Notes: a model not told the origin generated them from the sequence alone. A stretch of 64,000 bases of DNA from Brevinema andersonii (GCA_020722765.1 DYKD01000008.1:1304-65303); one strand, 5' to 3'. Positions 14,399-64,000 are shown, counted from the first letter of the stretch. A program made the numbers and translations.

Positions 14399-16318
14399 TC
14401 AGCTTTTATTCTTGATCTCTTCCAAAACCATTTTTATGGCGTCTTCTATCTGCATCACTGTCTGTTCATCAGAATCACGTCTTCGCAGGTTGACAGTCCC
14501 CTGCTCAAGTTCCTTGTCTCCTATGACGAACATGACAGGAATCTTTCTCATCTGGCCTTCACGTATCTTGTATCCAAGCTTGTTGTCTGACAGATCAGCT
14601 TCAGCACGGACAAGAGAACCGACCAACTGGTCTCTCAGCTTTATAGCTGCGCCCATCTGCTTCTCGCCGATGGGAATGACTAGGACTTGCACAGGCGACA
14701 ACCATAACGGAAACTTTCCGCTATAGTGTTCAATCAGAGTTCCTACAAACCGTTCCATGGAACCCAGCACAGCCCTGTGAATCATGACCGGAACATGTTC
14801 CTTGCCATCATTTCCGATATATGTCATATTGAATCTGGAGGGGAGATTGAAATCTACCTGTATTGTCGGTCCTTGCCACTCACGACCGATCGCATCCACG
14901 AGCTTGATGTCAATCTTCGGACCGTAAAAAGCTCCACCGCCCTCATCCACGGAATATTCCACTTTATGATGTTCCATGGATTTCCGCAGTGACTCAGTCG
15001 CTTTTTCCCAAAGTTCAAGAGTTCCAACGTACTTTTCAGGTCTAGTGGAAAGCATCACTTTGACGTTTCCAAAACCGAATGTGGTCATCATGTATGATAC
15101 AAGTTCTAACACTCCCACAAGTTCGTTTTCAAGCTGGTCTTCACGGCAGAAGATATGGCCATCATCCTGCGTAAAACCACGGACCCTCAACATGCCATGA
15201 AGCACACCGGATTTCTCATAACGATAGACAGTCCCAAGCTCTGCCCATCTATAAGGCAAATCACGATAACTGCGTATGGCTGTCTTGTAGATCAATATAT
15301 GGAAAGGACAGTTCATAGGTTTGATGATGAAATCCGTTCCATCCACATCGATGGGAGAATACATGTTTTCCGTATAGTTTTCAAGATGACCGCTTATACG
15401 CCAGAGTTCTGAATTTGCAATATGAGGAGAATAGACAAGATGATAACCGCGCTTTGCATGCACTTCACGCCAGAATTGCTCTATCGTATCGCGGATGGCT
15501 GCGCCGTTAGGATGCCAGAAAATAAGACCAGGTCCTGCAGCATCCTGTATGCTGAACAGATCCAACTCTTTACCAAGCTTACGGTGATCACGCTTCTCAG
15601 CCTCTTCCATCCGTTTCTGATAATCCTTCCATTCCTGTTCAGAGGAAAACGCCTCTCCATAGATACGTTGAAGCATCTTGTTCTTCTCATTACCACGCCA
15701 GTATGCGCCAGCAACCTTGAGAAGCTTGATGAACTTCATCCTACCTGTGGAAACAAGATGCGGTCCACGGCAAAGGTCAAAAAAATCACCTTGATGATAA
15801 AAAGACACGACCGCATCAGGAATCTCTTCTATGATTTCGACCTTATAGGGATTCCCTTCATTTTTATAGATGGAAACCGCATCGGCTTTTGCAATCTCCT
15901 TTCTTGTGATTGCCATATTTTCCGAAATGATTTTCCTTATCTCTTCTTCAATCTTTGAAAAATCTTCCTCAGTGAACCTGTGTTCAGAATCAAGGTCATA
16001 GTAGAAACCATCATCAACAGAAGGACCGATAGTCAATTTTGTGGAGGGATACAAGCGCATGATAGCTTGCGCCATGATGTGGGAGGCAGTATGCCTATAA
16101 ACATCCTTGGCAGCCTTATCCTTTAGCTTCAAAAAAAGAATCTTGGAATCCGTGAGTAAAGAGGCGGAAAGATCTGACAAATGTCCGTTCACTTCAGCAA
16201 CAACAGTCTCTTTTTCCAATCCACGGCTTATGGAAGCAGCTATCTGCAGAGGTGTTGTGCCTTTTAGGAATTCCTTCTTGTTTCCATCCGGGAATTCAAT
16301 GAGAATGTTTTCTGACAC
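14399..16318 (-). CDS. thrS: threonine--tRNA ligase (GTG start)
   Basis: 639 aa with an N-terminal TGS domain, a class II catalytic core and a C-terminal anticodon-binding domain. It is in the conserved thrS-infC-rpmI-rplT order. Confidence 0.9.
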   Translation of the reverse strand: MSENILIEFPDGNKKEFLKGTTPLQIAASISRGLEKETVVAEVNGHLSDLSASLLTDSKILFLKLKDKAAKDVYRHTASHIMAQAIMRLYPSTKLTIGPSVDDGFYYDLDSEHRFTEEDFSKIEEEIRKIISENMAITRKEIAKADAVSIYKNEGNPYKVEIIEEIPDAVVSFYHQGDFFDLCRGPHLVSTGRMKFIKLLKVAGAYWRGNEKNKMLQRIYGEAFSSEQEWKDYQKRMEEAEKRDHRKLGKELDLFSIQDAAGPGLIFWHPNGAAIRDTIEQFWREVHAKRGYHLVYSPHIANSELWRISGHLENYTENMYSPIDVDGTDFIIKPMNCPFHILIYKTAIRSYRDLPYRWAELGTVYRYEKSGVLHGMLRVRGFTQDDGHIFCREDQLENELVGVLELVSYMMTTFGFGNVKVMLSTRPEKYVGTLELWEKATESLRKSMEHHKVEYSVDEGGGAFYGPKIDIKLVDAIGREWQGPTIQVDFNLPSRFNMTYIGNDGKEHVPVMIHRAVLGSMERFVGTLIEHYSGKFPLWLSPVQVLVIPIGEKQMGAAIKLRDQLVGSLVRAEADLSDNKLGYKIREGQMRKIPVMFVIGDKELEQGTVNLRRRDSDEQTVMQIEDAIKMVLEEIKNKS

Positions 16319-49928: not shown

Positions 49929-50585
49929 TCACATCTGTTTTTTTGCAACAACTGCGAACTGGAGAAACGCGATATCACTCCAGGCACCCAAAGTCAGTAT
50001 GGATGCCAGTACAGGTCTAAAGGAACGTGAACGGCTGATACCTTTAATGGTCTCAATGGAATATCCTGCTGGTTCAAATAGTTTTCTTATGCTTTTTTTC
50101 GTGAAAAAGCGGAGATGTGTCCTATCCAAAATTCCGAATTCTTCATAATTCCAGTTTCCTTTAAAAACCAGATCAAAAAAATTCCTGTAAAATCGGACGT
50201 TTGGAATGGATGCGACTACAACACCACCAGGAACAATCTTTGACTTCAAACTGGAAAGCACAAGTTGAGGATCAACAAGATGCTCAAGAACATCGTTGAA
50301 GACTGCGACATCAAAATAATTTTCAGGCAGATCATCAATGCTGGCAAGCGCATCCTTCTGAATCACCTTGTGTAGACGTGTTGCAGCAATGCGGGAGGGC
50401 TCTTCCTCTATTTCTACACCCCAAGCTTCAGCACCAAAATCCTTTGCCAAACGCAAGACAAAATTGCCTTCACCACAACCGAACTCAATAACTTTAGTTA
50501 CGGTTTTTGGGATAAAAGGAATCATATCAACCCTGTTCAATGCAAAATAATCATCAGGCTTTCCCATGTACTGTTTCTCCTTCAA
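49929..50585 (-). CDS. class I SAM-dependent methyltransferase (small-molecule type)
   Basis: Motif I is VIEFGCGEGNF. There are no DNA-MTase motifs (DPPY/NPPY/PC). Confidence 0.65.
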   Translation of the reverse strand: MKEKQYMGKPDDYFALNRVDMIPFIPKTVTKVIEFGCGEGNFVLRLAKDFGAEAWGVEIEEEPSRIAATRLHKVIQKDALASIDDLPENYFDVAVFNDVLEHLVDPQLVLSSLKSKIVPGGVVVASIPNVRFYRNFFDLVFKGNWNYEEFGILDRTHLRFFTKKSIRKLFEPAGYSIETIKGISRSRSFRPVLASILTLGAWSDIAFLQFAVVAKKQM

Positions 50586-50880
50586 TTTCTATGCCATTCT
50601 CTTGACACCAAGACATTATGATTTCCTTGATTTTCCTGTTTCTATAATCGTAGTAACCTGTTGACAGTCCCATATCTTGAACCATATCTTTGAATCTTCT
50701 GAATCCACCCCTGCCTTCTAAAGCATTCTCAAGACTGTTACAAACAGTCCTGTCTTTACACGATCTGGCAAAACCTTTCATAATTTCACGGTCATCATCA
50801 GGGGAAAGTTCTGGCAACGAGACATACCGGTCATCCTCCAAATCTTCTTCTGTAATTTCATTTTTCTTCAGTTTCATCAA
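50554..50880 (-). CDS. hypothetical protein (UPF0158-like)
   Basis: 108 aa with a GRGGFRRFKD motif. Assignment to UPF0158 is from memory and uncertain. Confidence 0.35.
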   Translation of the reverse strand: MMKLKKNEITEEDLEDDRYVSLPELSPDDDREIMKGFARSCKDRTVCNSLENALEGRGGFRRFKDMVQDMGLSTGYYDYRNRKIKEIIMSWCQENGIEIEGETVHGKA

Positions 50881-51207
50881 AATTATATTGAATTACCTTT
50901 CCTGTTTCTTTGTCAAGATCATTCGTGCCGCTTTCCAAAGGAAAAACGACAGCTTCGAAAATGTCATCAAAATCCGCTTTTGGCATGAGACTTCCTGAAT
51001 ATTTCCAACTCGGTTTTTTTTAACAGAGTATACAAGCAAAATATCACAAATCATTTCAGTTTTGTCAAACTTTACGATTCTGAAAAAAAACTTACTCTCC
51101 GAAAAAATCTTTTTTCACCTCGTTATTTATGGCATCAGATGTTATTCTTTTTACTTTGATTTTTTATTGTTTAACAATTATATTGATATCCAAATATGGA
51201 GTTTTGA

Positions 51208-51954
51208 ATGCCGATTCCTTTTATTGAAATCCTTCGTCACTTTGACAATAGCCTCAACACTCTCATCAGGGATCTTTCCACCTCCTTCAATATAATCTCG
51301 TTCGCAATCCTTGTTTTGATCTCTTTCTTATACGGCTTGATTCATTCACTTGGGCCAGGACACGGGAAGTCCCTCGTAGCTGCTTATTTCCTGAAAGAAA
51401 AACAACCCCTGAAAAAATCACTGCTCCTCGCAGGTGTCATTTCCCTTATACATTCAGGATCTGCCATTGTTCTTTCGATTCTTTTCAGCTTTGTGTTAAC
51501 TGGCATCAAAGGGATGATGCAGATCAAGATGCAGGGATATTTTATGTTTGCCAGTGGCCTCCTGATTTGTGCTATTGGTCTTTTTTTTCTGATTACCAAG
51601 ATTTTTTTTAATAAAGAGAATGAGCCCGAAGTAGTCCCCAAAAGCAAAAATCTTTTTCTCGTTGGCTTCTCCGCTGGTATTGTTCCTTGTCCTGCCGCTT
51701 TAATGATCATGCTTATCACAATTGCCAAAGGAGCTCCTCTTATTGGTCTGACTGCAGTGATAGCCATCTCTTTAGGCATGTTCACTATACTCACAATCAT
51801 TGGAACCGTCAGTATCACCATAAGAAATAAGATTATCTCTGCGTCTGGTACGATTTCTGGAAGAGTCCAATTGATATCTACAATTGTTGAATATCTATCT
51901 ATCTCCCTTATAATTCTTATTGGCGCTGCCATGATGCTGACAATTCTCAGATAA
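51208..51954 (+). CDS. NicO-family nickel/cobalt transporter permease
   Basis: HSLGPGHGK motif, 6-7 transmembrane segments, 248 aa. Confidence 0.65.
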   Translation: MPIPFIEILRHFDNSLNTLIRDLSTSFNIISFAILVLISFLYGLIHSLGPGHGKSLVAAYFLKEKQPLKKSLLLAGVISLIHSGSAIVLSILFSFVLTGIKGMMQIKMQGYFMFASGLLICAIGLFFLITKIFFNKENEPEVVPKSKNLFLVGFSAGIVPCPAALMIMLITIAKGAPLIGLTAVIAISLGMFTILTIIGTVSITIRNKIISASGTISGRVQLISTIVEYLSISLIILIGAAMMLTILR

Positions 51955-51965
51955 GAGGTAGCTTC

Positions 51966-52526
51966 ATGGATTTTCGTTTTCTAACACTTTTTTTATTATT
52001 TCTGACAGGATCCCCAACGCTTCAAGCTCACCCTCATATCTTTATCACCGTCTCTCTGCAACCTGTTATTGAACAAGAGACATTGAAAGGGTTTAAAATG
52101 AAATGGGTATGGGATAAATGGTGGAGCGAAGATGTGATCAATAGCTGTGATAACGATAAAAACGGAGTCTTCGACGAGAAAGAAAACTCTCAAATATTCA
52201 AAGATTTTTTCGATGGGATAAAAGATTACAATTATTTTACTGAGATTTCGATTGATGGGAAAAAAATAAAAACCGGCCTGGTCAAAAAGCTTTCTGCAAC
52301 CATGGAAAAATCAGGGCAAGTAAGCTATTCTTTTTTCCTTCCAGCAGAGGTTCCCATATCCAAAAAAACGAAAATCAAACTTGTTTTTAATGATGAGACT
52401 ATTTATACGGCTTTTGACAAAAACGTCTTACTGATACAAAAACCTGGGATTGAATATAACAACCCGTCTTATGTCACGTCTGGCTATTACGGGGTACAGG
52501 TTACTTTCCAAATGACACGACCATAA
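51966..52526 (+). CDS. DUF1007 family periplasmic partner of NicO transporter
   Basis: Signal peptide. The mature N-terminus HPHIFITV is typical of DUF1007. It is adjacent to and downstream of the NicO gene. Confidence 0.6.
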   Translation: MDFRFLTLFLLFLTGSPTLQAHPHIFITVSLQPVIEQETLKGFKMKWVWDKWWSEDVINSCDNDKNGVFDEKENSQIFKDFFDGIKDYNYFTEISIDGKKIKTGLVKKLSATMEKSGQVSYSFFLPAEVPISKKTKIKLVFNDETIYTAFDKNVLLIQKPGIEYNNPSYVTSGYYGVQVTFQMTRP

Positions 52527-52536
52527 AAATCCGGAA

Positions 52537-53583
52537 TCATTGCATTTCTAACCGCGAGTCCCCCCACTCATCCCATCCTATCTCATTTCCTGTGCTGTTA
52601 ATTCTTGAAACGATGTATTCATGGCATTCAACAGGATTATCCTTCAAGCAAGCCTTTCCATCATAAAGTGAATATTGGCTTCTGTATGATGCTGGAGTCA
52701 AATTTGGCATCATGATATTAGCTCCAGCTTTCAATCCATTTTCCCATCCAGATGAATTACTGACCTGAAGTGCTGTTGATGCGACAATATTCATACGAGG
52801 TCTGCAGATCCTCATTATGGCAATCATTTTTAGTGTAAGTTCAAATCTCTGCTCAAGGGAAAAACCAGACTTGATATTTCTTAATGGAGCATTGAGATGT
52901 TCAATATAAGGCCCCATTCCGATCATATCAAAACCTGATTTTAGCATAAAAACAATATCATTCGCCAAATCTTCCAATGTCTGACCTGGCAGACCAATCA
53001 TGACTCCGGAACCGACAATGTACCCTGTCTTTCGCAAGTTGCTGAGAGCCTCAATCCTGCTATCAAAACTGTGGAGCTTATCATCAGGATGAATTTTTGC
53101 ATACAAATTCCTATTGGATGTTTCAATCCTAAGAAGATATCTGTGGGCTCCTGCCTTAAACCAACGGGAATAAGTCTCATCTGTCTGTTCCCCCAAGGAA
53201 AGAGTGATTCCAATTTTCCCTTGTGAAATTTTCTTGATTTCCACGAGAAGAGCCTCAATATCACTGATAAAAGCAGGGTTTTGTTGTTCTCCAGATTGAA
53301 GTACAATGCTCCCGTACCTGTTTTCATACGCATAATGGACCGCATCAAGAACTTCCTTTCTTGGCAAAGCATATCTCTCCAATCCGTTATTCCCTGATCT
53401 TATGCCACAATACAGGCAATTTTTCCTGCAAATATTCGAATACTCTATAAGACCACGAAGAAAGATCTTGTTTCCTCTCTGTTTCATTTTTATATCATAT
53501 GCCTTGGCATACAAGGCATTCAAATCATCCTTAGACGTCAGTGACATGTAATGAAGAATTTCAGATTTTGAAAGAGCATTCAT
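52537..53583 (-). CDS. hydE: [FeFe]-hydrogenase maturase HydE (radical SAM)
   Basis: CRKNCLYCGIRSGN is the radical SAM CxxxCxxC motif. The protein is 348 aa with a BioB-like fold. It sits directly downstream of hydF and overlaps it by 4 nt. Confidence 0.7.
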   Translation of the reverse strand: MNALSKSEILHYMSLTSKDDLNALYAKAYDIKMKQRGNKIFLRGLIEYSNICRKNCLYCGIRSGNNGLERYALPRKEVLDAVHYAYENRYGSIVLQSGEQQNPAFISDIEALLVEIKKISQGKIGITLSLGEQTDETYSRWFKAGAHRYLLRIETSNRNLYAKIHPDDKLHSFDSRIEALSNLRKTGYIVGSGVMIGLPGQTLEDLANDIVFMLKSGFDMIGMGPYIEHLNAPLRNIKSGFSLEQRFELTLKMIAIMRICRPRMNIVASTALQVSNSSGWENGLKAGANIMMPNLTPASYRSQYSLYDGKACLKDNPVECHEYIVSRINSTGNEIGWDEWGDSRLEMQ

Positions 53584-54857
53584 ATTGATACTGAAGAACC
53601 CAGGAAAGGCTCAATGACCCGTTCAAAAATACCATTGATATAGGCAATAGTCATTCCATAATTTGTGACTGGCACTTTTGCTTTGAGAAAATCATGAAGA
53701 CGACCTATAACCTGTTTTCTGGTCATCATACAGCCACCACACTGGATAACAAGGGCATATTCTGTTACTGGACGGGAGATTTCGCTATGTCCAGAAATAA
53801 TATCAAAATCCAGGGACCTCTGTGAAAACGCTCTGACCCATTTGGGAATTTTGCTTCTTCCAATATCTTCGCAACTTATCTGGTGTGTACAGGATTCAAG
53901 AATCAAAATGCGATCACCATCCTGAAGAGAGGAGAGTTTCCTGGTCCCTTTGAGATAATCATCAAATGGGCCACGCATATAGGCAAATGCTATGCTGAAA
54001 CTTGTAAGCATGATCTCTTTGGGAACAATGGAATCCACAAACTTGAATGCTTGACTGTCCGTAACCACAATTTTCGGTCTAATGCCTGAAGTCAAAAGAA
54101 AATGTTCAGCCTCTGTCTCTTTCAAGACGATGCTGACTCCGTTATTATCCAAAACATCCCTGATCATCATGACTTGTGGAAGTATCATCCTGCTATCCGG
54201 GGCCTCCGAATCAATAGGAGTGACAAGCAAGGCAATGTCATCTTTAGCAAGTAGATTGCCGAGTAAAGATGGATTCTGATAAGCTGTTTGTGGGATTGTT
54301 TTTTTTAACATGGCAATGACTTTGTCCAGATTTTGAAGCGTCACAGAACTAAAATCAATAGCGTCGATTCCTGCGAAAGAGCGAATCATTTCCACTTGAT
54401 TCTGCTGAAGTGGCTCCAAATCGCATTTATTATGAATAATCAGGAAAGGAATATCAAAATCACGAAATTTTCGGAGAAGTTCTTTTTCATATTCATCAAA
54501 AGAGTTCTGGAAGAAGAGCAGTATGGCACAGTCAATTTGCTTTATGACCGCAACGCTTTTTTCTACTCTTTTCTTACCTAACTCTCCCTCATCATCAATT
54601 CCAGCCGTATCAATGATTATTGTTGGACCTATGCCAAAAATTTCCATAGATTTTCTGACAGGATCCGTGGTTGTGCCTGCCACTGAAGAAACAATTGATA
54701 CATCCGATCCTGTAATGGCATTGATAAATGAGCTTTTCCCACTGTTGCATCTTCCAAAAATGCCAATATGCGGTTTATTGTCATTGCCTTTCATAAAAAA
54801 AATCCTTATCTCGGAAGTCGAACCTTCTACAAGTAAAGATAAGCAATCTTGACACAA
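53580..54857 (-). CDS. hydF: [FeFe]-hydrogenase maturation GTPase HydF
   Basis: GTPase G1 motif (GRCNSGKSSFINAITG), a dimerisation domain, and C-terminal cluster-binding CTHQ...QCGGC motifs. 425 aa. Confidence 0.75.
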   Translation of the reverse strand: MCQDCLSLLVEGSTSEIRIFFMKGNDNKPHIGIFGRCNSGKSSFINAITGSDVSIVSSVAGTTTDPVRKSMEIFGIGPTIIIDTAGIDDEGELGKKRVEKSVAVIKQIDCAILLFFQNSFDEYEKELLRKFRDFDIPFLIIHNKCDLEPLQQNQVEMIRSFAGIDAIDFSSVTLQNLDKVIAMLKKTIPQTAYQNPSLLGNLLAKDDIALLVTPIDSEAPDSRMILPQVMMIRDVLDNNGVSIVLKETEAEHFLLTSGIRPKIVVTDSQAFKFVDSIVPKEIMLTSFSIAFAYMRGPFDDYLKGTRKLSSLQDGDRILILESCTHQISCEDIGRSKIPKWVRAFSQRSLDFDIISGHSEISRPVTEYALVIQCGGCMMTRKQVIGRLHDFLKAKVPVTNYGMTIAYINGIFERVIEPFLGSSVSI

Positions 54858-55149
54858 AAAGCATGTTAAAAATAAATGTCTCTCTCTCCAGATTCGATTT
54901 TTTTCATACGTTCAGATTTCCATAGACGTTCTTCTTCAGTTAAAAACATGCAACTTTAATACTACTTTGACAAAGCAACAGTAAAGACACCTGTAGCTGA
55001 ATAGTCGCCGGCACTTCGATACTTTTTTCATGGAAAAACACTCAGTATCCGACGGCGTAACGAAGCAAACCGGTGCAGAAATCATCAGAATGTCAAAGTA
55101 ACGTTAATACTAATATCATCAGACAAACCTGTTTAGTTCTTGGTAAATC

Positions 55150-55345
55150 ATTGAGCTTTTCTTATGCTGACTCACCCCTGAACGCTACGCGTTCGACCCC
55201 TCTCTCGAGAAAGAAGGGTAAGAAGGTCATTCTTACCCTTTCCCTTTTAAGGCTTCCAGCCCTGGAAGGGGAAAGGGTCGACACACAAAGTGCGACGCTT
55301 CGGAGTACCCAAGGTGCCTCACCGAGGGGTACGGCGGGGATAGAG
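55150..55345 (+). ncRNA. candidate structured RNA / terminator cluster in ~500-nt non-coding gap
   Basis: Hairpins seen: GGGTAAGAA-ggtca-TTCTTACCC followed by TTTCCCTTTT; a nested ACCCTTTCCC...GGGAAAGGGT stem enclosing CTTCCAG/CTGGAAG; GTACCC...GGGTAC enclosing GGTG-cct-CACC; and CTGAACGC-ta-CGCGTTCGAC. The overlapping 94-aa ORF (55073..55357) is likely spurious. Strand is not determined. Confidence 0.35.
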
Positions 55346-55372
55346 TCACGAACCTGAATTATTCAGTGAGCA

Positions 55373-55990
55373 CTAATTTATTTTTTCCGCAATAATGATA
55401 TTCTGAAATTCACTGGCCATTTCACTTGTAATCATACCTATCTTATTCAGATATTCTTTGGCTTTCTGCATGGGCCAACCAACAACATCATGCGTTCTAC
55501 CTTCAGATAAATGTACATCATCCATAATCTTAAAAGTTTTTTCTGTAAAATCGCTCAAAACGAGTCTACCACCCTTTTTAAGAATCCGTATCAGTTCAGA
55601 TAGAACTTTTTCAGAATTCCGTAGATGGTGCAGTGTATTAACACAGAAAATCAGATCAAAGCATGAATCTGGAAAAGAGATCTTTTCAGCGTTTTCCAAC
55701 ACAAACTTCACATTGTCCTGCAATCCTTTCTTTGAAAGGTAATATTTGGCAATTTCCTGTCCTAATGCATCAATGTCAATGGATGTGAAAACATATCCTC
55801 TTGAGGCCAATTCACCAGTCATACTGCCCTTGCCAGTACCTACCTCTAGAATATTTCCTTTGATGGATCCAGCAGAATCAATGACAAAACGTCTTTCCTT
55901 CATAGGTTCATAACCATACTTCTGATATTGTTCCAACCTTTTTCTATGCCTGAGCTCACCTTCGCTTATCTCTTCATCAGAAATCATCAT
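55373..55990 (-). CDS. class I SAM-dependent methyltransferase
   Basis: Motif I is ILEVGTGKGSMTG. 205 aa. Confidence 0.65.
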   Translation of the reverse strand: MMISDEEISEGELRHRKRLEQYQKYGYEPMKERRFVIDSAGSIKGNILEVGTGKGSMTGELASRGYVFTSIDIDALGQEIAKYYLSKKGLQDNVKFVLENAEKISFPDSCFDLIFCVNTLHHLRNSEKVLSELIRILKKGGRLVLSDFTEKTFKIMDDVHLSEGRTHDVVGWPMQKAKEYLNKIGMITSEMASEFQNIIIAEKIN

Positions 55991-56051
55991 TTTTCCCTTC
56001 TTTTCCTGTCCGATTTTTTTTTAACAGGAAAGACTTTGATAATCAGATTAC

Positions 56052-56882
56052 TCAGAATCTATAACATCGACCAACTGCACAGGTTGTGATAATTCCAGGC
56101 AACTTTTTTCGCATCAGTTTTACTGAATCTTCACCCGAGCAATGGCAGGCAGCTACTTTCAAGATGCCTTCCTTACGGATATAATCCACTGTCTGTTCCA
56201 AGCGTTCCTTACTGGCATTAATGAGATGGAGTCCTCCAACGACTGCTACAATCTTCTTTTTCGGATTCAATGTTTTTACATATTCACAGGTATTGATAAA
56301 TCCGGAATGGCAACAACCGGTGAGAACTACCAATCCATCATCCGTATTGATCCACATGGCAGATTCGTCAGGGATGAGATCAACTTCTTTTTTCTGAAAA
56401 TCCCGATAGAAGGAACCGCCAGTATCTTCAAAGGGAACCAAGCGAGGAATGGCACCGGTAAATCCATAGTGCGTTGCAAGGAGTGGTCGCTCCAACCAGC
56501 ATTTCCTGTTTTCTTGTAATGACTTAATCCTTTGGATTGATTTTTCATCTATTCCTATATACCTTGGATTTTCAGGATCCTTGAAACTGATATGAGTAGT
56601 CACAATCTCCGGATGTGCCACAAGAATTGCCTGTGGATTCATTTGAAGAATCCTATCCAAAGAACCTGTATGATCATAATGTCCATGACTTATAACGATT
56701 TTATCCAAATTTTCCAGACTTATTCCCATTTTCTTGCTGTTTTGAAAAATGGCCTCACCCGAACCCATATCAAAAAGTATTTTCTCCGTATGAATCTCCA
56801 GATGGGCAGAAAAACCATGTTCGGATCTATAGGAAAAGGAAGCGTTATTATCCACCAAAACACGTATTTTTACAGTCATCTC
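56052..56882 (-). CDS. MBL-fold metallo-hydrolase
   Basis: HxHxDH motif (ISHGHYDHTG). An internal ATG preceded by GGAGGG is the likely start. Confidence 0.65.
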   Translation of the reverse strand, partial: EMTVKIRVLVDNNASFSYRSEHGFSAHLEIHTEKILFDMGSGEAIFQNSKKMGISLENLDKIVISHGHYDHTGSLDRILQMNPQAILVAHPEIVTTHISFKDPENPRYIGIDEKSIQRIKSLQENRKCWLERPLLATHYGFTGAIPRLVPFEDTGGSFYRDFQKKEVDLIPDESAMWINTDDGLVVLTGCCHSGFINTCEYVKTLNPKKKIVAVVGGLHLINASKERLEQTVDYIRKEGILKVAACHCSGEDSVKLMRKKLPGIITTCAVGRCYRF

Positions 56883-57004
56883 ACCCTCCCGCCTGGCATT
56901 GCAATGAAGTGACAGTGACAACAGGAAAAACAATTGTCCGAACTTTAGCGGAAGCTATATCCTGCCGTTTCGAGAAAATTTCCAATTTGTTCAATGTAAA
57001 AAAA

Positions 57005-58648
57005 TCAATGATCGCAAGCGTTCACGCCTGCCTTCAACTCACCTTTCAAGAAAGCATTAGCGAGATTTTCAGGAGTATCTGGTGAACAACCGACAAGAAC
57101 CTCAATATTCTTTTCCTTGAAAAGTGATTGAGCCATCTCCCCCATACCACCGGCAATAATCATGTTTACACCTTTATCTCCCAGCCATTTAGGCAAAAGC
57201 CCTGGTTGATGGGGAGGTGCATCCAAATTTGTCCTTGAAATGACTATTTTCTTTTCCATATCCACTTCCATTACAGCAAAGGCGTTGCAATGTCCGAAGT
57301 GAGGGTTCAGCTTGTTGTTGTTAACTGGAATAGCAATCTTCATCGTATTCTCCTTTTGGTTTTTAGCTACAAAAAAATTCTTGATCTTGGATACAAGATT
57401 CGAATTTACCTCTTTCGATTCATCTTTTTTAAGACCAAGTGAGTTTCGAACTTTTTCTACTATTTCTGAAAGTACTGTTTCTTCCTTCTCAATGAAAGTT
57501 GTTCTCCCTTCATCAGAATCAAGCCTAATATCAGGCTCAATAGGAATGGATCCGAGAAGGGGAAGGTCAAACTGTTTGGCAAGAGTCTCTCCTCCGCCTG
57601 AACTGAAAATGTCTGTTTTTGTCCCACAATGAGGACAAACAAAACCGCTCATGTTTTCCACAATACCAATCACATCCAAAGAAAGCTGTTTGCAGAAGTT
57701 AAGTGACTTTCGAACATCTGCAGCTGAAGCTTCCTGTGGTGTTGTAACAACAAGCGCTTTTGTATCTTTTCCTAAAGTTTGCACCACTGAGAGGGGTTCA
57801 TCTCCTGTTCCTGGAGGTGAATCTACAACAAGCATATCCAGATCTCCCCAGCCGACATCCCGAATGAGTTGTTTTATGACTCCGATTTTCATTGGACCTC
57901 GCCAGATGACGGCATCATCAGGATGACGGAGCATAAATCCCATGGAAATCACCTTGAGATTATTAAGCCGTTTTATTGTAACAGGAACAATAGCTGTCCC
58001 ATCAGAGGTTAGTCCTTGTTCCTTTATTCCCAACATTAAAGGCACGCTGGGACCGTGAAAATCCACATCAAGCAGACCTACACGCAAGCCTGAAAGAGCC
58101 AAGCCTGCTGCCAGATGAACAGCCACAGTACTTTTTCCGACTCCTCCTTTTCCAGAAAGGACAACAACCTTGTTTTTTATGGTTGAAAGCCTGCCAGCAA
58201 TCTGGGCATCCTCTTCTGCCTGGCTTGGCTGAGTCTCCTTCGGTATTGAACAGGAAGAAACCGGCTTTTTTTCATTTTTCTCCTTGTAAGAAGCAACGAC
58301 TTTTTTCAAGGTATCTACAGAAAGAAGGGCGCAATGAAAAGATTCCGTTGGAATATCACCGGCTACAGCTAACACTTCCTCAGGGATCATCTTATCAAAA
58401 TAGGAAAGTCCCTTTCCACAAACGAGATTTGCAGCTGCTGTCCCACATGCTATGGAATCCGCACATCCATCTGTTGTAAATGAGGCTTCCGTAACCATTC
58501 CATCCTGAATGCGAAGCCAGAATTCCATCGTATCACCGCAAGATCCCGTAAGTCTCCCATTTGCATCAGCCTGTTTGAGCGGACCAAAATTGTGCGGGAG
58601 TGTTCTCTTTACTTGTTCATAGTCATGTTGGTACATAATTTTTTCCAT
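57005..58648 (-). CDS. tri-domain fusion: IscU/NifU-N-like scaffold + Mrp/NBP35 (ApbC) P-loop ATPase + NifX/NifB-like (FeMo-co-type) domain
   Basis: The N-terminus has conserved Cys (GSCGDTM...DGCADSIACG...FHCALL) as in IscU/SufU. The middle has a deviant Walker A (LSGKGGVGKST) and CPHCG as in Mrp/NBP35. The C-terminus (MKIAIPVN...LNPHFGHCNAFAV) resembles the dinitrogenase FeMo-cofactor-binding (NifX/NafY-like) domain. Confidence 0.6.
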   Translation of the reverse strand: MEKIMYQHDYEQVKRTLPHNFGPLKQADANGRLTGSCGDTMEFWLRIQDGMVTEASFTTDGCADSIACGTAAANLVCGKGLSYFDKMIPEEVLAVAGDIPTESFHCALLSVDTLKKVVASYKEKNEKKPVSSCSIPKETQPSQAEEDAQIAGRLSTIKNKVVVLSGKGGVGKSTVAVHLAAGLALSGLRVGLLDVDFHGPSVPLMLGIKEQGLTSDGTAIVPVTIKRLNNLKVISMGFMLRHPDDAVIWRGPMKIGVIKQLIRDVGWGDLDMLVVDSPPGTGDEPLSVVQTLGKDTKALVVTTPQEASAADVRKSLNFCKQLSLDVIGIVENMSGFVCPHCGTKTDIFSSGGGETLAKQFDLPLLGSIPIEPDIRLDSDEGRTTFIEKEETVLSEIVEKVRNSLGLKKDESKEVNSNLVSKIKNFFVAKNQKENTMKIAIPVNNNKLNPHFGHCNAFAVMEVDMEKKIVISRTNLDAPPHQPGLLPKWLGDKGVNMIIAGGMGEMAQSLFKEKNIEVLVGCSPDTPENLANAFLKGELKAGVNACDH

Positions 58649-59502
58649 ACTCCTTGTATTTCAGATTTTAATTTTTGATTTTCAGTTTCAATGATACTTT
58701 TTCCCTGCAGTTGTGCCTGTGTGAATGTCTTGTCGTAAGAGATGCGTCCTAGGATAATTCCTCCTGCTTTCAAACTTTCTTCCTCGATAGTATTAGTCAT
58801 TTCCGGATTTACGTCCCACTTGTTAATACAGACAAAAAGTTTTATTTTAAAATGCTTTGCCAGGTCTGCAACACGTTTCAAGTCATGTCTTCCTGAAACT
58901 GTCGGTTCAGTCACGGCCACAACAGCATCAGCACCTGTCACAGAAGCAATAACCGGGCAACCAATTCCTGGAGGACCATCTACAAAAAGAAAATCATAAT
59001 TTCCTTTCTCCGCAATATTTCGCGCCTCTTTCCGTACAAGTGAAACAAGCTTCCCGGAATTCTCTGATGCGGTCCCCAGTTTGGCATGAACCAAGGGTCC
59101 CACCCGAGTCATCGATTTCATCCAGACGCCACAATTCCGATCAGGGAAATCGATGGCTTTCACAGGACAGAACTGGACACAGACACCGCAGCCTTCACAA
59201 GCATTTGAATCAATATCAAAACGGATATCCCCTGATGACGTTTCCGTTTTCTTGACAGCATCAAACTTGCAAACTTCAAGACATCTTCCACAGCCAATAC
59301 AGGTCTTATTGCGGATGATGGCTTCATGACCGGATATGAAATCGTGCTGTTCCTGGATTTTTGGTTGCAAGAGAAGATGCATATCAGCAGCATCCACATC
59401 ACAATCCGCAATGACAGGATGATCCGCCAAAAAAGAGAATGCCGCAGTAATACTTGTTTTCCCCGTTCCACCTTTTCCGCTTATGATCACAATCTCTTTC
59501 AT
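58609..59502 (-). CDS. MinD/CooC-like P-loop ATPase with inserted 2x[4Fe-4S] ferredoxin domain
   Basis: Deviant Walker A (ISGKGGTGKTS) and two CxxCxxCxxxCP motifs (CIGCGRCLEVC; CEGCGVCVQFCP). 297 aa. Confidence 0.7.
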   Translation of the reverse strand: MKEIVIISGKGGTGKTSITAAFSFLADHPVIADCDVDAADMHLLLQPKIQEQHDFISGHEAIIRNKTCIGCGRCLEVCKFDAVKKTETSSGDIRFDIDSNACEGCGVCVQFCPVKAIDFPDRNCGVWMKSMTRVGPLVHAKLGTASENSGKLVSLVRKEARNIAEKGNYDFLFVDGPPGIGCPVIASVTGADAVVAVTEPTVSGRHDLKRVADLAKHFKIKLFVCINKWDVNPEMTNTIEEESLKAGGIILGRISYDKTFTQAQLQGKSIIETENQKLKSEIQGVWKKLCTNMTMNK

Positions 59503-60356
59503 GACAGTCCTCCTTTCTTCTCTTTTACAGAAGCATCAATCTTTTGCCTAAGAGAGAGAAAAAGATTCCTATATTCAGGGAGGGCATCAATCATCCTGAT
59601 TCCTTTCGAATAAGCCTCCATGATACGTCTGTCATCCGGAATTTCCAGTAAAAGAGGGATTTTTTTAGTCTTGCAATATTCATGAACCCTGTTATCACCT
59701 GATCCATTTCGGTTGACAACAACACCAAAAGGAAGTTTTAATTCCTGGATCATATCCACTGCCAAAGAGAGATCATGAAGTCCGAAAGGTGTAGGCTCAG
59801 TCACAAGTACAACAAAATCCGTATCACGGACAGAGGTAACAACAGGACAGGATGTACCTGGGGGAGAATCTATGATGACAAGGGGGGCTGATTCACTCAT
59901 CTTCTTGAGGGCGCGGATGACAGGGGGCGATGTGGATACACCTACATCCAGCTTTCCCTGAAGCAGTGTCATTTTATCCTTCCTGAAGGTTGTAATTTTT
60001 CCAATTGTTCTTTCGACTTCGGTTATGGCTCCACGTGGACAAACGAGCTTACAACCACCACAACTATGACAGAGTTCTGGGAAGATGAGAGGCTTTGTCC
60101 CAAAAGCTACGATAGCCTTATACTGGCAAAATCTAGCACACAATCCACAAGCATCACATTTGGATTCATCAACAATCGGAACCAACACATTTACCGGCTT
60201 CTCGCTTATTTGTTCTGCTGAAAGAAAAAGGGCAGCATTGGGTTCTTCCACGTCACAATCCAATAGAGTGACAGGTTCTTCGTAAATGCCAGCCAAGTTG
60301 ACGGAAAGCGTGGTTTTGCCTGTTCCACCTTTTCCAGAAGCAATAGATATTTTCAA
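59499..60356 (-). CDS. MinD/CooC-like P-loop ATPase with inserted 2x[4Fe-4S] ferredoxin domain (paralogue)
   Basis: ASGKGGTGKTT plus two ferredoxin motifs (CDACGLCARFC; CHSCGGCKLVCP). It overlaps the downstream paralogue by 4 nt. Confidence 0.7.
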   Translation of the reverse strand: MKISIASGKGGTGKTTLSVNLAGIYEEPVTLLDCDVEEPNAALFLSAEQISEKPVNVLVPIVDESKCDACGLCARFCQYKAIVAFGTKPLIFPELCHSCGGCKLVCPRGAITEVERTIGKITTFRKDKMTLLQGKLDVGVSTSPPVIRALKKMSESAPLVIIDSPPGTSCPVVTSVRDTDFVVLVTEPTPFGLHDLSLAVDMIQELKLPFGVVVNRNGSGDNRVHEYCKTKKIPLLLEIPDDRRIMEAYSKGIRMIDALPEYRNLFLSLRQKIDASVKEKKGGLS

Positions 60357-60524
60357 TTCATAACTCCTTCATCCTTGTTTCTAAGTAAGGATTTTGTCGT
60401 ACTGTGAAGGACATTGGTACCCAAAGGAACATTCAACATTTCTGAAACAATATCACTTTTGGCTTGAAGAAGGAAAAAAGTTTTCTGATGTGTATCATGC
60501 AAAGATTCATAATTACCCTGTCCT

Positions 60525-60812
60525 TTAGAGATGATCATGAATCTCTTTACGTAACCAAGGGACCATCTCCTCAACGATCTTTGAAATCTTTCGCTTTGCT
60601 TCCTGATAAGGATCCTGCTGTGAGAAATATTTCCTGATTATGCGTTGAATATGCTGCACCTGATATGGAGGAGACCGGGAATAATCCATACTTGTAATCC
60701 ATGTTAACACGTCACGCATCACATTCTCCATTACCTGAGGATCATCTGTCAAAGCCTTGATAGATTTTAAAGCCTGCTTAACAAAACAAGAAACACATTC
60801 AGTCGTCTCCAT
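60525..60812 (-). CDS. small hypothetical protein (Cys-containing, helical)
   Basis: The internal ATG (METTECVSCF...) lies just after the stop of the upstream NifX-like gene. The long ORF upstream of this ATG overlaps that gene and is probably not translated. Confidence 0.35.
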   Translation of the reverse strand: METTECVSCFVKQALKSIKALTDDPQVMENVMRDVLTWITSMDYSRSPPYQVQHIQRIIRKYFSQQDPYQEAKRKISKIVEEMVPWLRKEIHDHL

Positions 60813-60816
60813 TTTA

Positions 60817-61179
60817 TCAGATCCAGTGCGATGCCACATTGGCATCTTCCAGAGGTTTGAGCAATCCAGCCTGGAGCTGCTGTAGTGCTTCGGATATTGT
60901 CTTGGCTGTTGTGTTATAAACTTTGATACCAGCCATGGAAAGGACCTTGAAGGCCTTAGGGCCACAATTCCCTGTAACTAGGGATTCAGCACCAGAACGG
61001 GCAACCGCTTCTGCAGACTGGATTCCTGCACCTTGAGCCAGATCCATATTTTGATTGTTGTCAAACACAGTAAAGGATTTCTGTTCTGTATCATAGATGA
61101 GAAATTTCGGAGCACGACCAAATCGTTGGTCTAATGCAGATTCGAGATTTTCACCTGATGTAGTAAAAGCAATTTTCAT
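60817..61179 (-). CDS. NifX/NifB-like (dinitrogenase FeMo-cofactor biosynthesis domain) protein
   Basis: MKIAFTTSGENLESALDQRFGRAPKFLIYD is the typical N-terminus of PF02579-type proteins. 120 aa. Confidence 0.65.
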   Translation of the reverse strand: MKIAFTTSGENLESALDQRFGRAPKFLIYDTEQKSFTVFDNNQNMDLAQGAGIQSAEAVARSGAESLVTGNCGPKAFKVLSMAGIKVYNTTAKTISEALQQLQAGLLKPLEDANVASHWI

Positions 61180-61426
61180 AAGTATCTCCTTCTCCTATTT
61201 TTTCTGGTTTACAAAGCCAAAAGATCAGGGATTTTAAAATTAAAAAACATAGTCTGAGTCGAGTATGATTTCATACGTATCTTTAAGGGTAAAGAGGGGA
61301 CATGTCTCGATCCCCTCAAAGTCCCTTGTTTTTAAGCAAGATCTACACAATTGAACTTTTATCCTTGATTTTGATTAAGTTCAATGCGCTTTCCTGCCCA
61401 AAAAATGCTGACAAGTCATAGCCTCA

Positions 61427-61780
61427 TTAAGCATCCTTGTCATCTTCCTTATCCAATTCAGAAATCCTAGAATTCAACCCTTGGATTTCTTCCTGGAGAG
61501 AAGAGACATAAGCTTTGAGATTATCTTTCACAGCTTTCTTGCTTTGTGTGGGATAAGCATACTGGTCAAACTGATAGCCTCGGCCCCAACCTGGGAGACC
61601 AGTTGCATAAAACTGGTTCCTGTAACCATGACCACCACCCATTCCAAAGCCTCTTCCAAATCCAGCTCTTCCACGGCCAACATTCATAAACCCTGGCATT
61701 CCATAACCATTACAAAAGCCAGCGCCTCTTCCTGTCCTTGACCCCATTCCCATGGGACCTGTACCATTTCCTCTAGCCAT
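61427..61780 (-). CDS. DUF5320 family glycine-rich protein
   Basis: The N-terminus is glycine/arginine-rich (MARGNGTGPMGMGSRTGRGAGFCNGYG...GRGRAGFGRGFGMGGGHG). The C-terminus is a coiled coil (LKAYVSSLQEEIQGLNSRISELDK). Confidence 0.55.
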   Translation of the reverse strand: MARGNGTGPMGMGSRTGRGAGFCNGYGMPGFMNVGRGRAGFGRGFGMGGGHGYRNQFYATGLPGWGRGYQFDQYAYPTQSKKAVKDNLKAYVSSLQEEIQGLNSRISELDKEDDKDA

Positions 61781-61807
61781 ATCGTGCCTCCTTAAAATAA
61801 TTTTTTT

Positions 61808-62191
61808 TCATTTTTTTTGTCTTCTAAATCCATGCCCACCTCTCCAGCCATGATGTCTTCTGCAACCTGGCATCAGGTATCGCGTATTGGAAAGCTTCCC
61901 TTGGAGCCAAGCTTGCAAGACCTCATCAATCTCTCCAGAAACAAAGGAAAGAACCTCTATTTCTTTTGATGCAAGAATCTGTCGTGCACCGCAGGAGATA
62001 GAACCGCAGATAAGCGTCTTTACCTTTTTCCTCTCTAGAAAATCCGCTTTTGCAAAACATGACTCTTTCGGCAAAAGAAAGTCATCCCGTTTTAATGAAC
62101 CATCCTCAGAGCGTGAAAAAAAGGCAACAGAGGAAGCGGCGTCAAAAACAGGCGAAACCCTTCTGTTCCATGATGTAATCGCTATATTCAT
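61808..62191 (-). CDS. NifX/NifB-like domain protein with Gly/Arg/His-rich C-terminal tail
   Basis: MNIAITSWNRRVSPVFDAASSVAFF... is the NifX-like core. The tail is PGCRRHHGWRGGHGFRRQKK. Confidence 0.55.
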   Translation of the reverse strand: MNIAITSWNRRVSPVFDAASSVAFFSRSEDGSLKRDDFLLPKESCFAKADFLERKKVKTLICGSISCGARQILASKEIEVLSFVSGEIDEVLQAWLQGKLSNTRYLMPGCRRHHGWRGGHGFRRQKK

Positions 62192-62343
62192 AACAATGAT
62201 ATTGCAGAAAACGTGCCATGGGGAAAAAAATAATCTTCAGGTTAATTCGCATAAAGAACCCATTTAGAGAAGCAAGAAAACAATCTTTATCTTAAAACGT
62301 TGCAATAAAGCAACATTATGTAACAATATTGCAACAAGACAGA

Positions 62344-62904
62344 TCAGATCTTATACTTCAAACTTCCTGTAGGACATTTCTCCACGCATTCCAGGCATTT
62401 GGAACAGTTGAACGAAGAAGCCGCATTTTTTTTACCTTTCTGATAAACACTATATTCAGGATTCAAAGCGGCTAGATAACAATTCTTATCACATATACCG
62501 CAAGAAATACAAATTGATTCATCCTTCCTGATTTTTACAGGTGAGAGCCTATTAAAAAAGCCACCAACCCATGCAACAGGACATCCCAGCTTATGATAAT
62601 TATAAATCTGGATATTTTTTGCGTCCTTATCAGCACTCAACAGGATTTCCACAAAAAGACCAATAGGACATATCCATCTACAGAACACTTTTCCGAATAT
62701 GACTCCTATAATGGTCCCGGCCATCAGAAGGTAAATGAGGATATCCTTGAAAAGATACATTAGAACCATGATGCTGAGCGCAAAAACGATTTGAATCAGA
62801 CGTCTATGTCTGATGATTTTTTTTATCATAAAATCTCCTATCTGTTCGAATTCGTCATATTTTTCATTGACAATCTGAAATATAAGACCTATATTATCCT
62901 TCAC
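62344..62904 (-). CDS. membrane-bound polyferredoxin (NapH/MauN-like 4Fe-4S protein)
   Basis: Transmembrane segments plus CRWICPIG, CISCGICDKNC and CSKCLECVEKCP motifs. The start may instead be the internal ATG at 62829. Confidence 0.6.
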   Translation of the reverse strand: MKDNIGLIFQIVNEKYDEFEQIGDFMIKKIIRHRRLIQIVFALSIMVLMYLFKDILIYLLMAGTIIGVIFGKVFCRWICPIGLFVEILLSADKDAKNIQIYNYHKLGCPVAWVGGFFNRLSPVKIRKDESICISCGICDKNCYLAALNPEYSVYQKGKKNAASSFNCSKCLECVEKCPTGSLKYKI

Positions 62905-62924
62905 TCATTTCCAAGGAGTCTTCC

Positions 62925-63836
62925 ATGGACTGTACCCAATGCCTCTCAAAAGGATGCAGAAAAAACAATGCCTGTACATCCGACAAACATCTTTATATAG
63001 AGGAATATGCGAATCCTAAAAACCAATCCATTACCAAAGCCGCGTCAAAACTTGTGGATAATGGCAGAGCTGGCAAACTCAACAGATTGGAAGAGATCAT
63101 AGAGTATTGCCAAATTAGGGGACATAACTATCTTGGCGTGGCCTATTGTTACGGCATGGAAAAAGAGGCTACGACATTGCGGAAAACCCTCAAACAGGCA
63201 GGGTTTAAACTTGAAATGGTCTCTTGCACTGTTGATGGCCTATCTGAAACAGAACTCGACAAGATGAAAACAAAAAAGACTGTCTCATGCAACCCTTTAG
63301 GTCAGACCAACGTCCTCAACCGCAAAGGGGTTCAGTTCACCATCCTGATGGGATTATGTCTAGGACATGACGTCATACTCCAGAACAGTTTAAAAATGGA
63401 TCATACAGTCTTTGTTGTAAAAGACAGAGTTCTTAACAACAATCCTATACAAGCTCTGCCAGGATTCATCTCACAAGAAGACCAATTCCTCATGAATTTA
63501 CCAAAAGATTTTCACCTTATCGATTCAGAAGCCTTGAACCATGTCCTTTCTGAAAAAAGGGAATCCGCCACTATCATCGACCTCAGACCTGTGGAACAGT
63601 ATAATAAAAACCATATCAAAGGTGCAGTCAATAGCCCCTTGAACCTGCTTATCACTGATTATAGGAGCATCCTAAAACATCCTGATACTCTTACCATAGT
63701 GTACTGTAATGGAGGCATACAATCCATTTACACGGTGATGTTCCTTGCCATGAAAGGATATAAAAATGTAAAGAGTCTCCAAGGTGGATTTTCCAAATTC
63801 CTAGGAACTTATCCTCATAAGGTGACACCATCTTGA
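62925..63836 (+). CDS. DUF1847 (Cys-rich metal-binding) domain fused to rhodanese-like domain
   Basis: The N-terminus is Cys-rich (CTQCLSKGCRKNNAC...). The C-terminal rhodanese fold has an active-site loop (IVYCNGGIQS). It is divergent from the polyferredoxin gene. Confidence 0.55.
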   Translation: MDCTQCLSKGCRKNNACTSDKHLYIEEYANPKNQSITKAASKLVDNGRAGKLNRLEEIIEYCQIRGHNYLGVAYCYGMEKEATTLRKTLKQAGFKLEMVSCTVDGLSETELDKMKTKKTVSCNPLGQTNVLNRKGVQFTILMGLCLGHDVILQNSLKMDHTVFVVKDRVLNNNPIQALPGFISQEDQFLMNLPKDFHLIDSEALNHVLSEKRESATIIDLRPVEQYNKNHIKGAVNSPLNLLITDYRSILKHPDTLTIVYCNGGIQSIYTVMFLAMKGYKNVKSLQGGFSKFLGTYPHKVTPS

Positions 63837-64000
63837 AAACTCCTGAAAAAACTTCTCCTTATTCATTAAAAATTCTCAAACAGGAAGGGATTTGAATTCT
63901 ATCATTTATAGTGAAGCCTTTCTTATTTTATGCAAGAAGAATCTTTTTGATCGTATTTTCCAAACCACTTTTTGACATGGCTCCAACGGACATCTGGGGC

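Follow-up and report, generated by a model that had tools for sequence, protein, structure and literature searches.

The closest known counterparts of the locus described here are the orange protein (ORP) systems of Desulfovibrio vulgaris Hildenborough (orp5-orp4-orp3 / orpR / orp7-orp8-orp9; DVU2103-DVU2109) and D. alaskensis G20. The locus lies in a 64,000 nucleotide stretch of DNA from Brevinema andersonii (GCA_020722765.1 DYKD01000008.1:1304-65303), in which a first-pass annotation had placed, at positions 57005-63836, a dense cluster of Fe-S and metallocluster-handling genes next to hydE and hydF. Below, the window means this whole 64 kb stretch, and numbers preceded by L are labels of comparison loci.

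Earlier work, on sulfate-reducing bacteria, has shown that ORP binds a Mo-Cu-S cluster and that the orp operons are under a redox-sensing sigma-54 activator, OrpR (PMC6345978, PMC8359166). The cluster in Desulfovibrio is the non-covalent [S2MoS2CuS2MoS2]3-, and Orp3, Orp4, Orp8, and Orp9 form a physical complex. Orp3 and Orp4 are paralogous MinD-like ATPases with two ferredoxin motifs each, which co-purify with the orange protein Orp8 and whose mutual similarity has been published as 41% (PMC6345978). MrpORP is an Mrp/NBP35 ATPase joined to a "Di-Nase" (PF02579) domain with the motifs CxHFGHCE, PPPHxPG, and CDH; in vitro it carries [4Fe-4S] and transfers clusters to Orp3/Orp4 (PMC6345978). The orp operons of D. 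vulgaris need sigma-54, IHF, and OrpR, whose PAS [4Fe-4S] senses redox and which is active only at about -425 mV (PMC8359166, PMC3897727).

Our analysis showed that the window holds genes of the Orp8, Orp3/Orp4, and Orp9 types. We therefore consider it likely that the locus is an ORP system, an anaerobe-specific metalloprotein module, of the D. vulgaris DVU2103-2109 type; the polyferredoxin, the rhodanese, and hydE and hydF would be neighbours and not components. The annotation had proposed a dedicated metallocluster-handling module, and this was upheld. It had also regarded the cluster as novel and held that none of its families has an established function. Neither view stands: the gene order is widespread and already tied to the described ORP system, for which the MrpORP-to-Orp3/Orp4 transfer in vitro, the Mo-Cu-S cluster of ORP, and the control by OrpR have been published.

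Gene content of the locus

Genes and domains in the region 55.4-63.8 kb were called with Pfam and NCBIfam profiles on open reading frames (ORFs). In transcription order, the genes that bear on the ORP assignment are:

61808-62191, minus strand: tailed NifX-like protein, 127 aa; PF02579 at 32.6 bits (gathering score 26.3)
61427-61780, minus strand: DUF5320 protein; PF17253 at 81.6 bits
60817-61179, minus strand: ORP-like (Orp8-type) protein, 120 aa, single-domain; PF02579 at 84 bits
60353-60965, minus strand: DUF89/ARMT1-like pseudogene; PF01937 profile positions 3-94 and 264-311 of 311
59499-60356, minus strand: MinD-ferredoxin (MinD-Fd) ATPase, paralogue 1 (Orp3/Orp4-type); CbiA/MinD with two Fer4 stretches, GKGGTGKT Walker A
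58609-59502, minus strand: MinD-Fd ATPase, paralogue 2 (Orp3/Orp4-type); CbiA/MinD with two Fer4 stretches
57005-58648, minus strand: MrpORP with an IscU-like N-terminus, 547 aa; NifU_N at 69, ParA/NUBPL at 315, and PF02579 at 67 bits
56052-56933 (ORF; gene taken as 56052-56879), minus strand: MBL-fold hydrolase (TM1679/COG1237-like); Lactamase_B
55373-55990, minus strand: class I S-adenosylmethionine (SAM) methyltransferase; Methyltransf_11 at 80 bits

All the ORFs listed in the first-pass annotation are present where it had placed them, and nearly all of its domain assignments were borne out by the profile search. Two of its 4-nt overlaps are genuine (59499-59502 and 60353-60356). Its count of ten genes in about 7 kb holds only approximately, and the genes for the MBL hydrolase and the methyltransferase lie outside 57005-63836. 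The closest PDB entries to the MBL hydrolase are 3H3E and 2P4Z, both uncharacterised.

The listed genes and domains are all real, save one. What had been called a small Cys protein is the N-terminal piece of a DUF89/ARMT1-like gene that has shifted frame and is short of about 144 internal codons; its two parts meet near 60539. In a tblastn search with the full-length homologue of L086 (303 aa), its residues 6-92 and 237-299 aligned to abutting DNA in two frames. The broken DNA is identical in three public assemblies in which this contig occurs. The contig is listed at NCBI as CCWRTO010000021.1 (GCA_973314595.1) and was also found in JGI 3300000227 and SRR1559028.

The MrpORP fusion and its partners

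The product of 57005-58648 matched the MrpORP equivalog profile NF041136 with 491.6 bits against a cut-off of 450, over profile positions 1-365 of 365. It comprises an IscU-like domain (residues ~18-127), an Mrp/NBP35 domain (~154-402) with the Walker A motif GKGGVGKS and a CPHC motif, and a Di-Nase/NifX domain (~436-547) with the motifs HFGHC, PPHQPG, and CDH. The scaffold, the carrier, and the NifX-type holder that the annotation had proposed are therefore found in one fused protein. Public gene calls begin at Met5 (58636) and give a 543-aa form. In an alignment of 30 sequences, the ligand residues C37, D39, C62, H105, C106, C338, C341, H450-C454, C545, and H547 were invariant. The N-terminal domain scored below the cut-offs of the IscU/NifU equivalog models (50.2 vs 192.4 bits for TIGR01999 and 65.5 vs 187.9 for TIGR03419), and it keeps the ligands C37, D39, C62, H105, and C106; judged by its sequence, it is IscU-like and not IscU proper.

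The fusion of NifU_N, Mrp, and PF02579 was found in at least 120 clusters at 90% identity, and the best-scoring 120 all have the three Pfam domains. NCBI gives the name MrpORP to several of the tri-domain clusters, among them clusters from Planctomycetota, Acidobacteriota, Thermodesulfobacteriota, Sumerlaeota, and others. Among the clusters listed, the closest relative of the present protein is about 50% identical. In the comparison loci described below, the IscU-like domain is fused in 6 of 14 and encoded by a separate adjoining gene in 3 of 14. The occurrence of fused and split forms (a Rosetta-stone pattern) supports a functional link between scaffold and carrier.

The top PDB match of the 120-aa protein is 2WFB, the ORP of D. 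gigas (E=3.7e-19, 71.9 bits). The two MinD-Fd ATPases are 29% identical and 44% similar to each other, and each contains two CX2CX2CX3C motifs.

Conservation of the gene order

The comparison set consisted of 14 MrpORP loci other than the present one, in which genes within 9 kb were counted. A contig scan with generic Mrp motifs gave 80 loci, mostly of ordinary Mrp and about 12 of MrpORP type, and six more loci came from a contig search. The conserved core order is tailed NifX, DUF5320, ORP, MinD-Fd 1, MinD-Fd 2, (IscU-)Mrp-NifX, and the same gene order was found in Acidobacteriota, Planctomycetota, Spirochaetes, Desulfobacteraceae, and others. Because this core order recurs in 14 unrelated loci, the clustering is not due to chance.

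ORP was present in 12 of the 14 loci. The two MinD-Fd paralogues were present in 10 each, with their order constant wherever they occur. The tailed NifX was found in seven loci; a PAS-sigma54 activator, a small Zn-ribbon protein, and the MBL hydrolase in six each; DUF5320 in five (six with Pfam calls); and a TrmO-like protein in four. DUF89, the SAM methyltransferase, a radical SAM protein, and 4HBT were found in three loci each. The intact DUF89 genes are those of L005, L010, and L040, and L086 also has DUF89, about 9.5 kb upstream. The MBL hydrolase is thus a frequent satellite of ORP loci and the methyltransferase an occasional one.

Some ORP loci have Mo/W- or Ni-related neighbours (L087 14994-21662; L088 1-1146 and 14427-15185), namely aldehyde:ferredoxin oxidoreductase, FmdE, NikR, FdhD, and CdhD. 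This observation is anecdotal.

Predicted promoter and regulation

A sigma-54-type promoter sequence, TGGCACGTTTTCTGCA, was identified at 62203-62218 on the minus strand, directly 5' of the ATG at 62191. It has GG at -24 and GC at -12, with one mismatch to TGGCAC-N5-TTGCW, and is the only intergenic site of this type in the region. Sigma-54-like sites also precede the equivalent gene in L084, L085, L087, L008, and L089. We infer that TGGCACGTTTTCTGCA acts as a sigma-54 promoter. The predicted transcription start is about 1-2 nt from the ATG, a position that implies a nearly leaderless transcript. The -12 elements stand about 12 nt from the start codon in the window (62192), in L008 (~5498), and in L089 (~6922), and near-leaderless transcripts from sigma-54 promoters may be expected at all three of these unrelated loci.

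A 37-bp imperfect palindrome at 62299-62335, 81-117 nt upstream of the promoter, holds the 16-bp sequence GTTGCAATAAAGCAAC. The 16-bp site of the form GTYGC-N6-GCRAC lies 81-96 nt upstream of the promoter. This form occurs once in the 64 kb window, where 0.05 occurrences are expected, and its background in 979 kb of unrelated loci is 0.08 sites per 10 kb. At the equivalent operon starts of L084, L085, and L087, an exact match to it precedes the sigma-54-like promoter by 94-143 nt, with two such sites in L087, and L089 has a variant with one mismatch. The palindrome is thus a candidate enhancer (upstream activating sequence, UAS) for a sigma-54 activator of the OrpR type.

Genes for PAS-sigma54-HTH activators adjoin four of the comparison loci (L084 3130-4521, L085 5645-6979, L088 1527-2942, and L089 5418-6755). 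Their products are 59-70% identical and share three invariant PAS cysteines (C-x8-C-x3-C), as published for OrpR. OrpR was described in a 2021 paper as restricted to Deltaproteobacteria; the four loci, which come from different genomes and metagenomes, could belong to that class or lie outside it. We predict that the present operon answers to an activator of the OrpR type whose gene is located in another part of the genome.

Alternative explanations

Several points weigh against the assignment to an ORP system. No OrpR-like activator was found in the window, by jackhmmer with the L084 activator or by Pfam scans of large ORFs, or in a further 4 kb of the contig. No small protein of the Zn_ribbon_8 type was found in the window, while 6 of the 14 loci have one between the ATPase genes. 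The linker of the present MrpORP has one Cys, but at least four are found in 23 of 29 tri-domain homologues. The 120-aa ORP-like protein is nearly as close to MTH1175 as to the D. gigas ORP (64.6 vs 71.9 bits), and MTH1175 was assigned to the IssA clade by Vaccaro et al. Fe-S, Mo-Cu-S, and W-Cu-S are all conceivable cargoes, among which sequence does not decide. Finally, the literature gives no physiological role for ORP systems, although the complex was described in 2011.

The likeness to IssA extends to two other proteins of the locus. The 127-aa NifX-like protein has an MPGC motif and ends in the tail RRHHGWRGGHGFRRQKK; its last 22 aa are rich in Gly, Arg, His, and Trp, with an isoelectric point (pI) of 12. 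Its homologues occupy the same operon position in the seven loci that have them, and all have MPGC and a G/R-rich tail. The first 75 aa of the DUF5320 protein contain 25 Gly, 8 Arg, and 12 aromatic residues, are Met-rich, and have a pI of 10.9. Its C-terminal part is acidic and, judged by eye, likely a coiled coil. DUF5320 is a family of 2900 clusters at 50% identity, and it is syntenic with ORP in L084, L085, L087, L088, L089, and L040. In at least five loci the tailed NifX gene stands next to the DUF5320 gene; the pair in L087 is separate and has a sigma-54 promoter of its own. No functional information on DUF5320 or DUF1847 emerged from searches of the literature.

The tail of IssA from Pyrococcus furiosus has 15 Gly, 7 cationic, and 14 aromatic residues among 70, with a pI of 10.7 (PMC5524996). 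This IssA-like chemistry suggests that the tailed NifX and DUF5320 proteins bind polyanions. On this basis the locus might be chiefly an iron-sulfur (thioferrate) store, in which the two proteins together represent a split IssA that the ATPases and MrpORP load and unload. The matching tail chemistry, the adjacency of the two genes, and their own promoter in L087 speak for such a store. But the tail here is 22 aa long vs 70 in IssA, composition is weak evidence, and the published ORP binds Mo-Cu-S and not thioferrate. In addition, no PF02579-DUF5320 fusion was found among the ten longest of the best 150 relatives of DUF5320. We consider this explanation unlikely.

It is also quite improbable that the ORP complex is mainly a device for cell division or positioning, in which the MinD-like ATPases localise at the pole or septum and the clusters are only redox sensors. 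In favour of such a device, D. vulgaris shows morphological defects when OrpR or Orp proteins are lost, MrpORP is located at the cell pole, and amphipathic C-terminal helices like that of MinD have been ascribed to Orp3/Orp4 (PMC6345978, PMC8359166). The hydrophobic moments of the ATPase C-termini here are 0.47-0.51, compared with 0.38 for a MinD membrane-targeting sequence taken as reference, which is a weak test of amphipathicity. However, the division phenotype could be indirect, and all the conserved partners in the 14 loci are metal-cluster or small-molecule enzymes. No min, fts, or par genes were seen among the annotated neighbours in six loci with Pfam calls, in which no homologue search for them was made.

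Neighbouring genes

The genes flanking the ORP operon are:

62925-63836, plus strand, divergent: DUF1847-rhodanese; DUF1847 at 105 bits and Rhodanese at 67 bits
62344-62904 (ORF), minus strand: membrane polyferredoxin; Fer4_5 and dicluster ferredoxin
after a gap of ~580 nt past the methyltransferase gene, minus strand: hydF; HydF_dimer and HydF_tetramer domains
3' of hydF in minus-strand order, minus strand: hydE; TIGR03956 at 314 bits (cut-off 254.6)

These genes had suggested an accessory pathway for the H-cluster or another complex cofactor, in which HydE and HydF would be partners, the polyferredoxin would supply electrons, and the rhodanese would donate sulfur. NifX-type domains carry complex Fe-S cofactors in nitrogenase maturation, and hydF and hydE are genuine, share the strand of the cluster, and follow it at a distance of 2-5 kb. 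We now regard such a pathway as very improbable. HydE, HydF, and the DUF1847-rhodanese were found within 9 kb of none of the 14 MrpORP loci, and the genes around homologues of the rhodanese in Desulfitobacterium and a Spirochaete are unrelated. Neither a hydrogenase (hydA) nor hydG was found when the large ORFs of the window were scanned with Pfam, and the gap between the methyltransferase and hydF contains a strongly structured element. Matches to the polyferredoxin in the 14 loci were few and weak, and its gene here stands upstream of the sigma-54 promoter of the operon, which argues against a role as its electron source. In view of the absence of the hyd genes and the rhodanese from the 14 loci and the unrelated neighbours of the latter, all of these flanking genes, that of the polyferredoxin included, are best treated as neighbours and not as components.

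A sigma-70-like promoter for the divergent DUF1847-rhodanese gene, TTGACA-17-TATATT, was identified at 62867-62895, inside the supposed N-terminal extension of the polyferredoxin. Because of this divergent promoter, and because the polyferredoxin gene lies upstream of the sigma-54 promoter, we suggest that it probably starts at the ATG at 62826 and not at the GTG at 62904, and that it is most likely a separate transcription unit.

A maturation locus for a nitrogenase-like or CO-dehydrogenase (CooC-type) cofactor, which might be proposed since PF02579 is the domain of NifX, NifB, and NafY and since CooC is similar to MinD-type ATPases, is effectively refuted for this window, as the NifX equivalog TIGR02663 scored 22.4 bits vs a cut-off of 112, there was no match to CooC, and the same Pfam scans found no nif, anf, or CO-dehydrogenase genes, in agreement with the annotation, which had seen no tie to nitrogenase.

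A GC-rich stretch with multiple hairpins (55150-55372), which lies in the intergenic space that follows the stop codon of the methyltransferase gene and precedes hydF, occurs as a single copy in the window. Folded as RNA, its minus strand has a predicted energy of -89.7 kcal/mol (z = -4.7) and its plus strand one of -91.2 kcal/mol (z = -5.0); 0 of 200 shuffled sequences were as stable. A search of 50000-64000 against Rfam gave no match at E<=1. Among the JGI gene calls there is an odd feature of 328 nt in this region (L002 6468-6795). The stretch could be a structured RNA or a terminator or insulator element.

A gene for a NicO-family metal transporter and a DUF1007 gene lie at 51208-52526 on the plus strand, beside hydE on the opposite strand, and are probably a Ni/Co uptake pair. 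The rest of the window encodes housekeeping proteins (ClpB, RseP, GlnRS, ThrRS, flagellin, RecJ, and a flavodiiron protein). ThrRS (14399-16318, minus strand) is up to 82% identical to metagenome sequences, while its best named matches, spread over many phyla, are about 55% identical.

Proposed mechanism and implications

For the ORP system proposed here, the following mechanism can be outlined. An Fe-S sigma-54 activator of the OrpR type, as the sites and the literature suggest, would bind GTYGC-N6-GCRAC and turn on the promoter at very low redox potential. The IscU-like domain of MrpORP would build Fe-S clusters, which may then pass to the CXXC site that bridges the dimer in the Mrp ATPase domain. 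MrpORP would next load the ferredoxin domains inserted in both MinD-type ATPases, as it does in vitro in the Desulfovibrio system. The MinD-Fd heterodimer, in a complex with ORP, would hold a non-covalent anionic metal-sulfide cluster, which is Mo-Cu-S in Desulfovibrio. The tailed NifX and DUF5320 proteins may provide cationic segments rich in Gly, Arg, and aromatic residues for polyanions, as in IssA. Most likely, the locus would thus encode a line of Fe-S assembly and delivery, running from the IscU-like to the Mrp domain, for the maturation of an ORP/MinD-Fd metal-sulfide complex; its expression would occur at low redox potential.

A bolder and rather doubtful reading is that loci of the ORP type are ATP-driven machines that both assemble and store anionic thiometallate or thioferrate. 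The fusion would be the assembly line, the MinD-Fd pair a NifH-like reductase or insertase, and the tailed NifX and DUF5320 proteins would sequester the product, with an Fe-S-sensing sigma-54 activator acting at GTYGC-N6-GCRAC across many phyla. If this were true, it would give a first function for DUF5320 (~2900 clusters) and explain the purpose of the orange protein complex.

As an ordinary member of a described system, the locus has mainly comparative value. The conserved unit is larger than the published five-protein complex, as it also includes the IscU-like scaffold (in fused or adjoining form), the tailed NifX, and DUF5320, and often the MBL hydrolase, the methyltransferase, and DUF89. 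The ORP system and, it seems, its OrpR-type regulation extend well beyond Deltaproteobacteria, and the candidate operator GTYGC-N6-GCRAC travels with ORP loci. The extended gene set, the reach of the system, and the candidate operator are all testable in Desulfovibrio genetics.

Comparison with known systems

The locus and the ORP system of Desulfovibrio have in common an ORP-type PF02579 protein, two paralogous MinD-ferredoxin ATPases, an Mrp/NBP35 and Di-Nase carrier with the same motifs, and a sigma-54 promoter with an upstream palindrome, which here are sequence matches only. They differ in several respects. The genes form one operon here and two divergent operons in D. vulgaris, and unlike in D. 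vulgaris there is no adjoining orpR. The present MrpORP has an extra N-terminal IscU-like domain and is without the N-terminal multi-Cys motif of the Desulfovibrio protein. The tailed NifX, DUF5320, MBL hydrolase, methyltransferase, and decayed DUF89 genes are additional conserved members here. Orp5, a small Cys-rich [2Fe-2S] protein (Orp5/Dde_3197 type), presumably belongs to the Zn-ribbon family, and a gene of this type is missing from between the ATPase genes. Judged by ThrRS, the host belongs to a deep-branching uncultured lineage with few relatives, unlike Desulfovibrio.

IssA and the uncharacterised "IssX" clade share with the tailed NifX protein the IPR003731/PF02579 domain and a cationic Gly/aromatic tail, and DUF5320 has the same tail chemistry. 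The tail of IssA is about 70 aa long vs 22 aa here. The tailed NifX gene belongs to an ORP operon, whereas IssA is under sulfur-responsive archaeal regulation.

The cytosolic Nbp35/Cfd1 proteins, bacterial ApbC/Mrp, and IscU have in common with MrpORP the deviant Walker A, the CXXC motif of the bridging cluster, and the IscU ligands. Those are separate proteins, whereas here the scaffold, the carrier, and a NifX-type domain are joined in one polypeptide.

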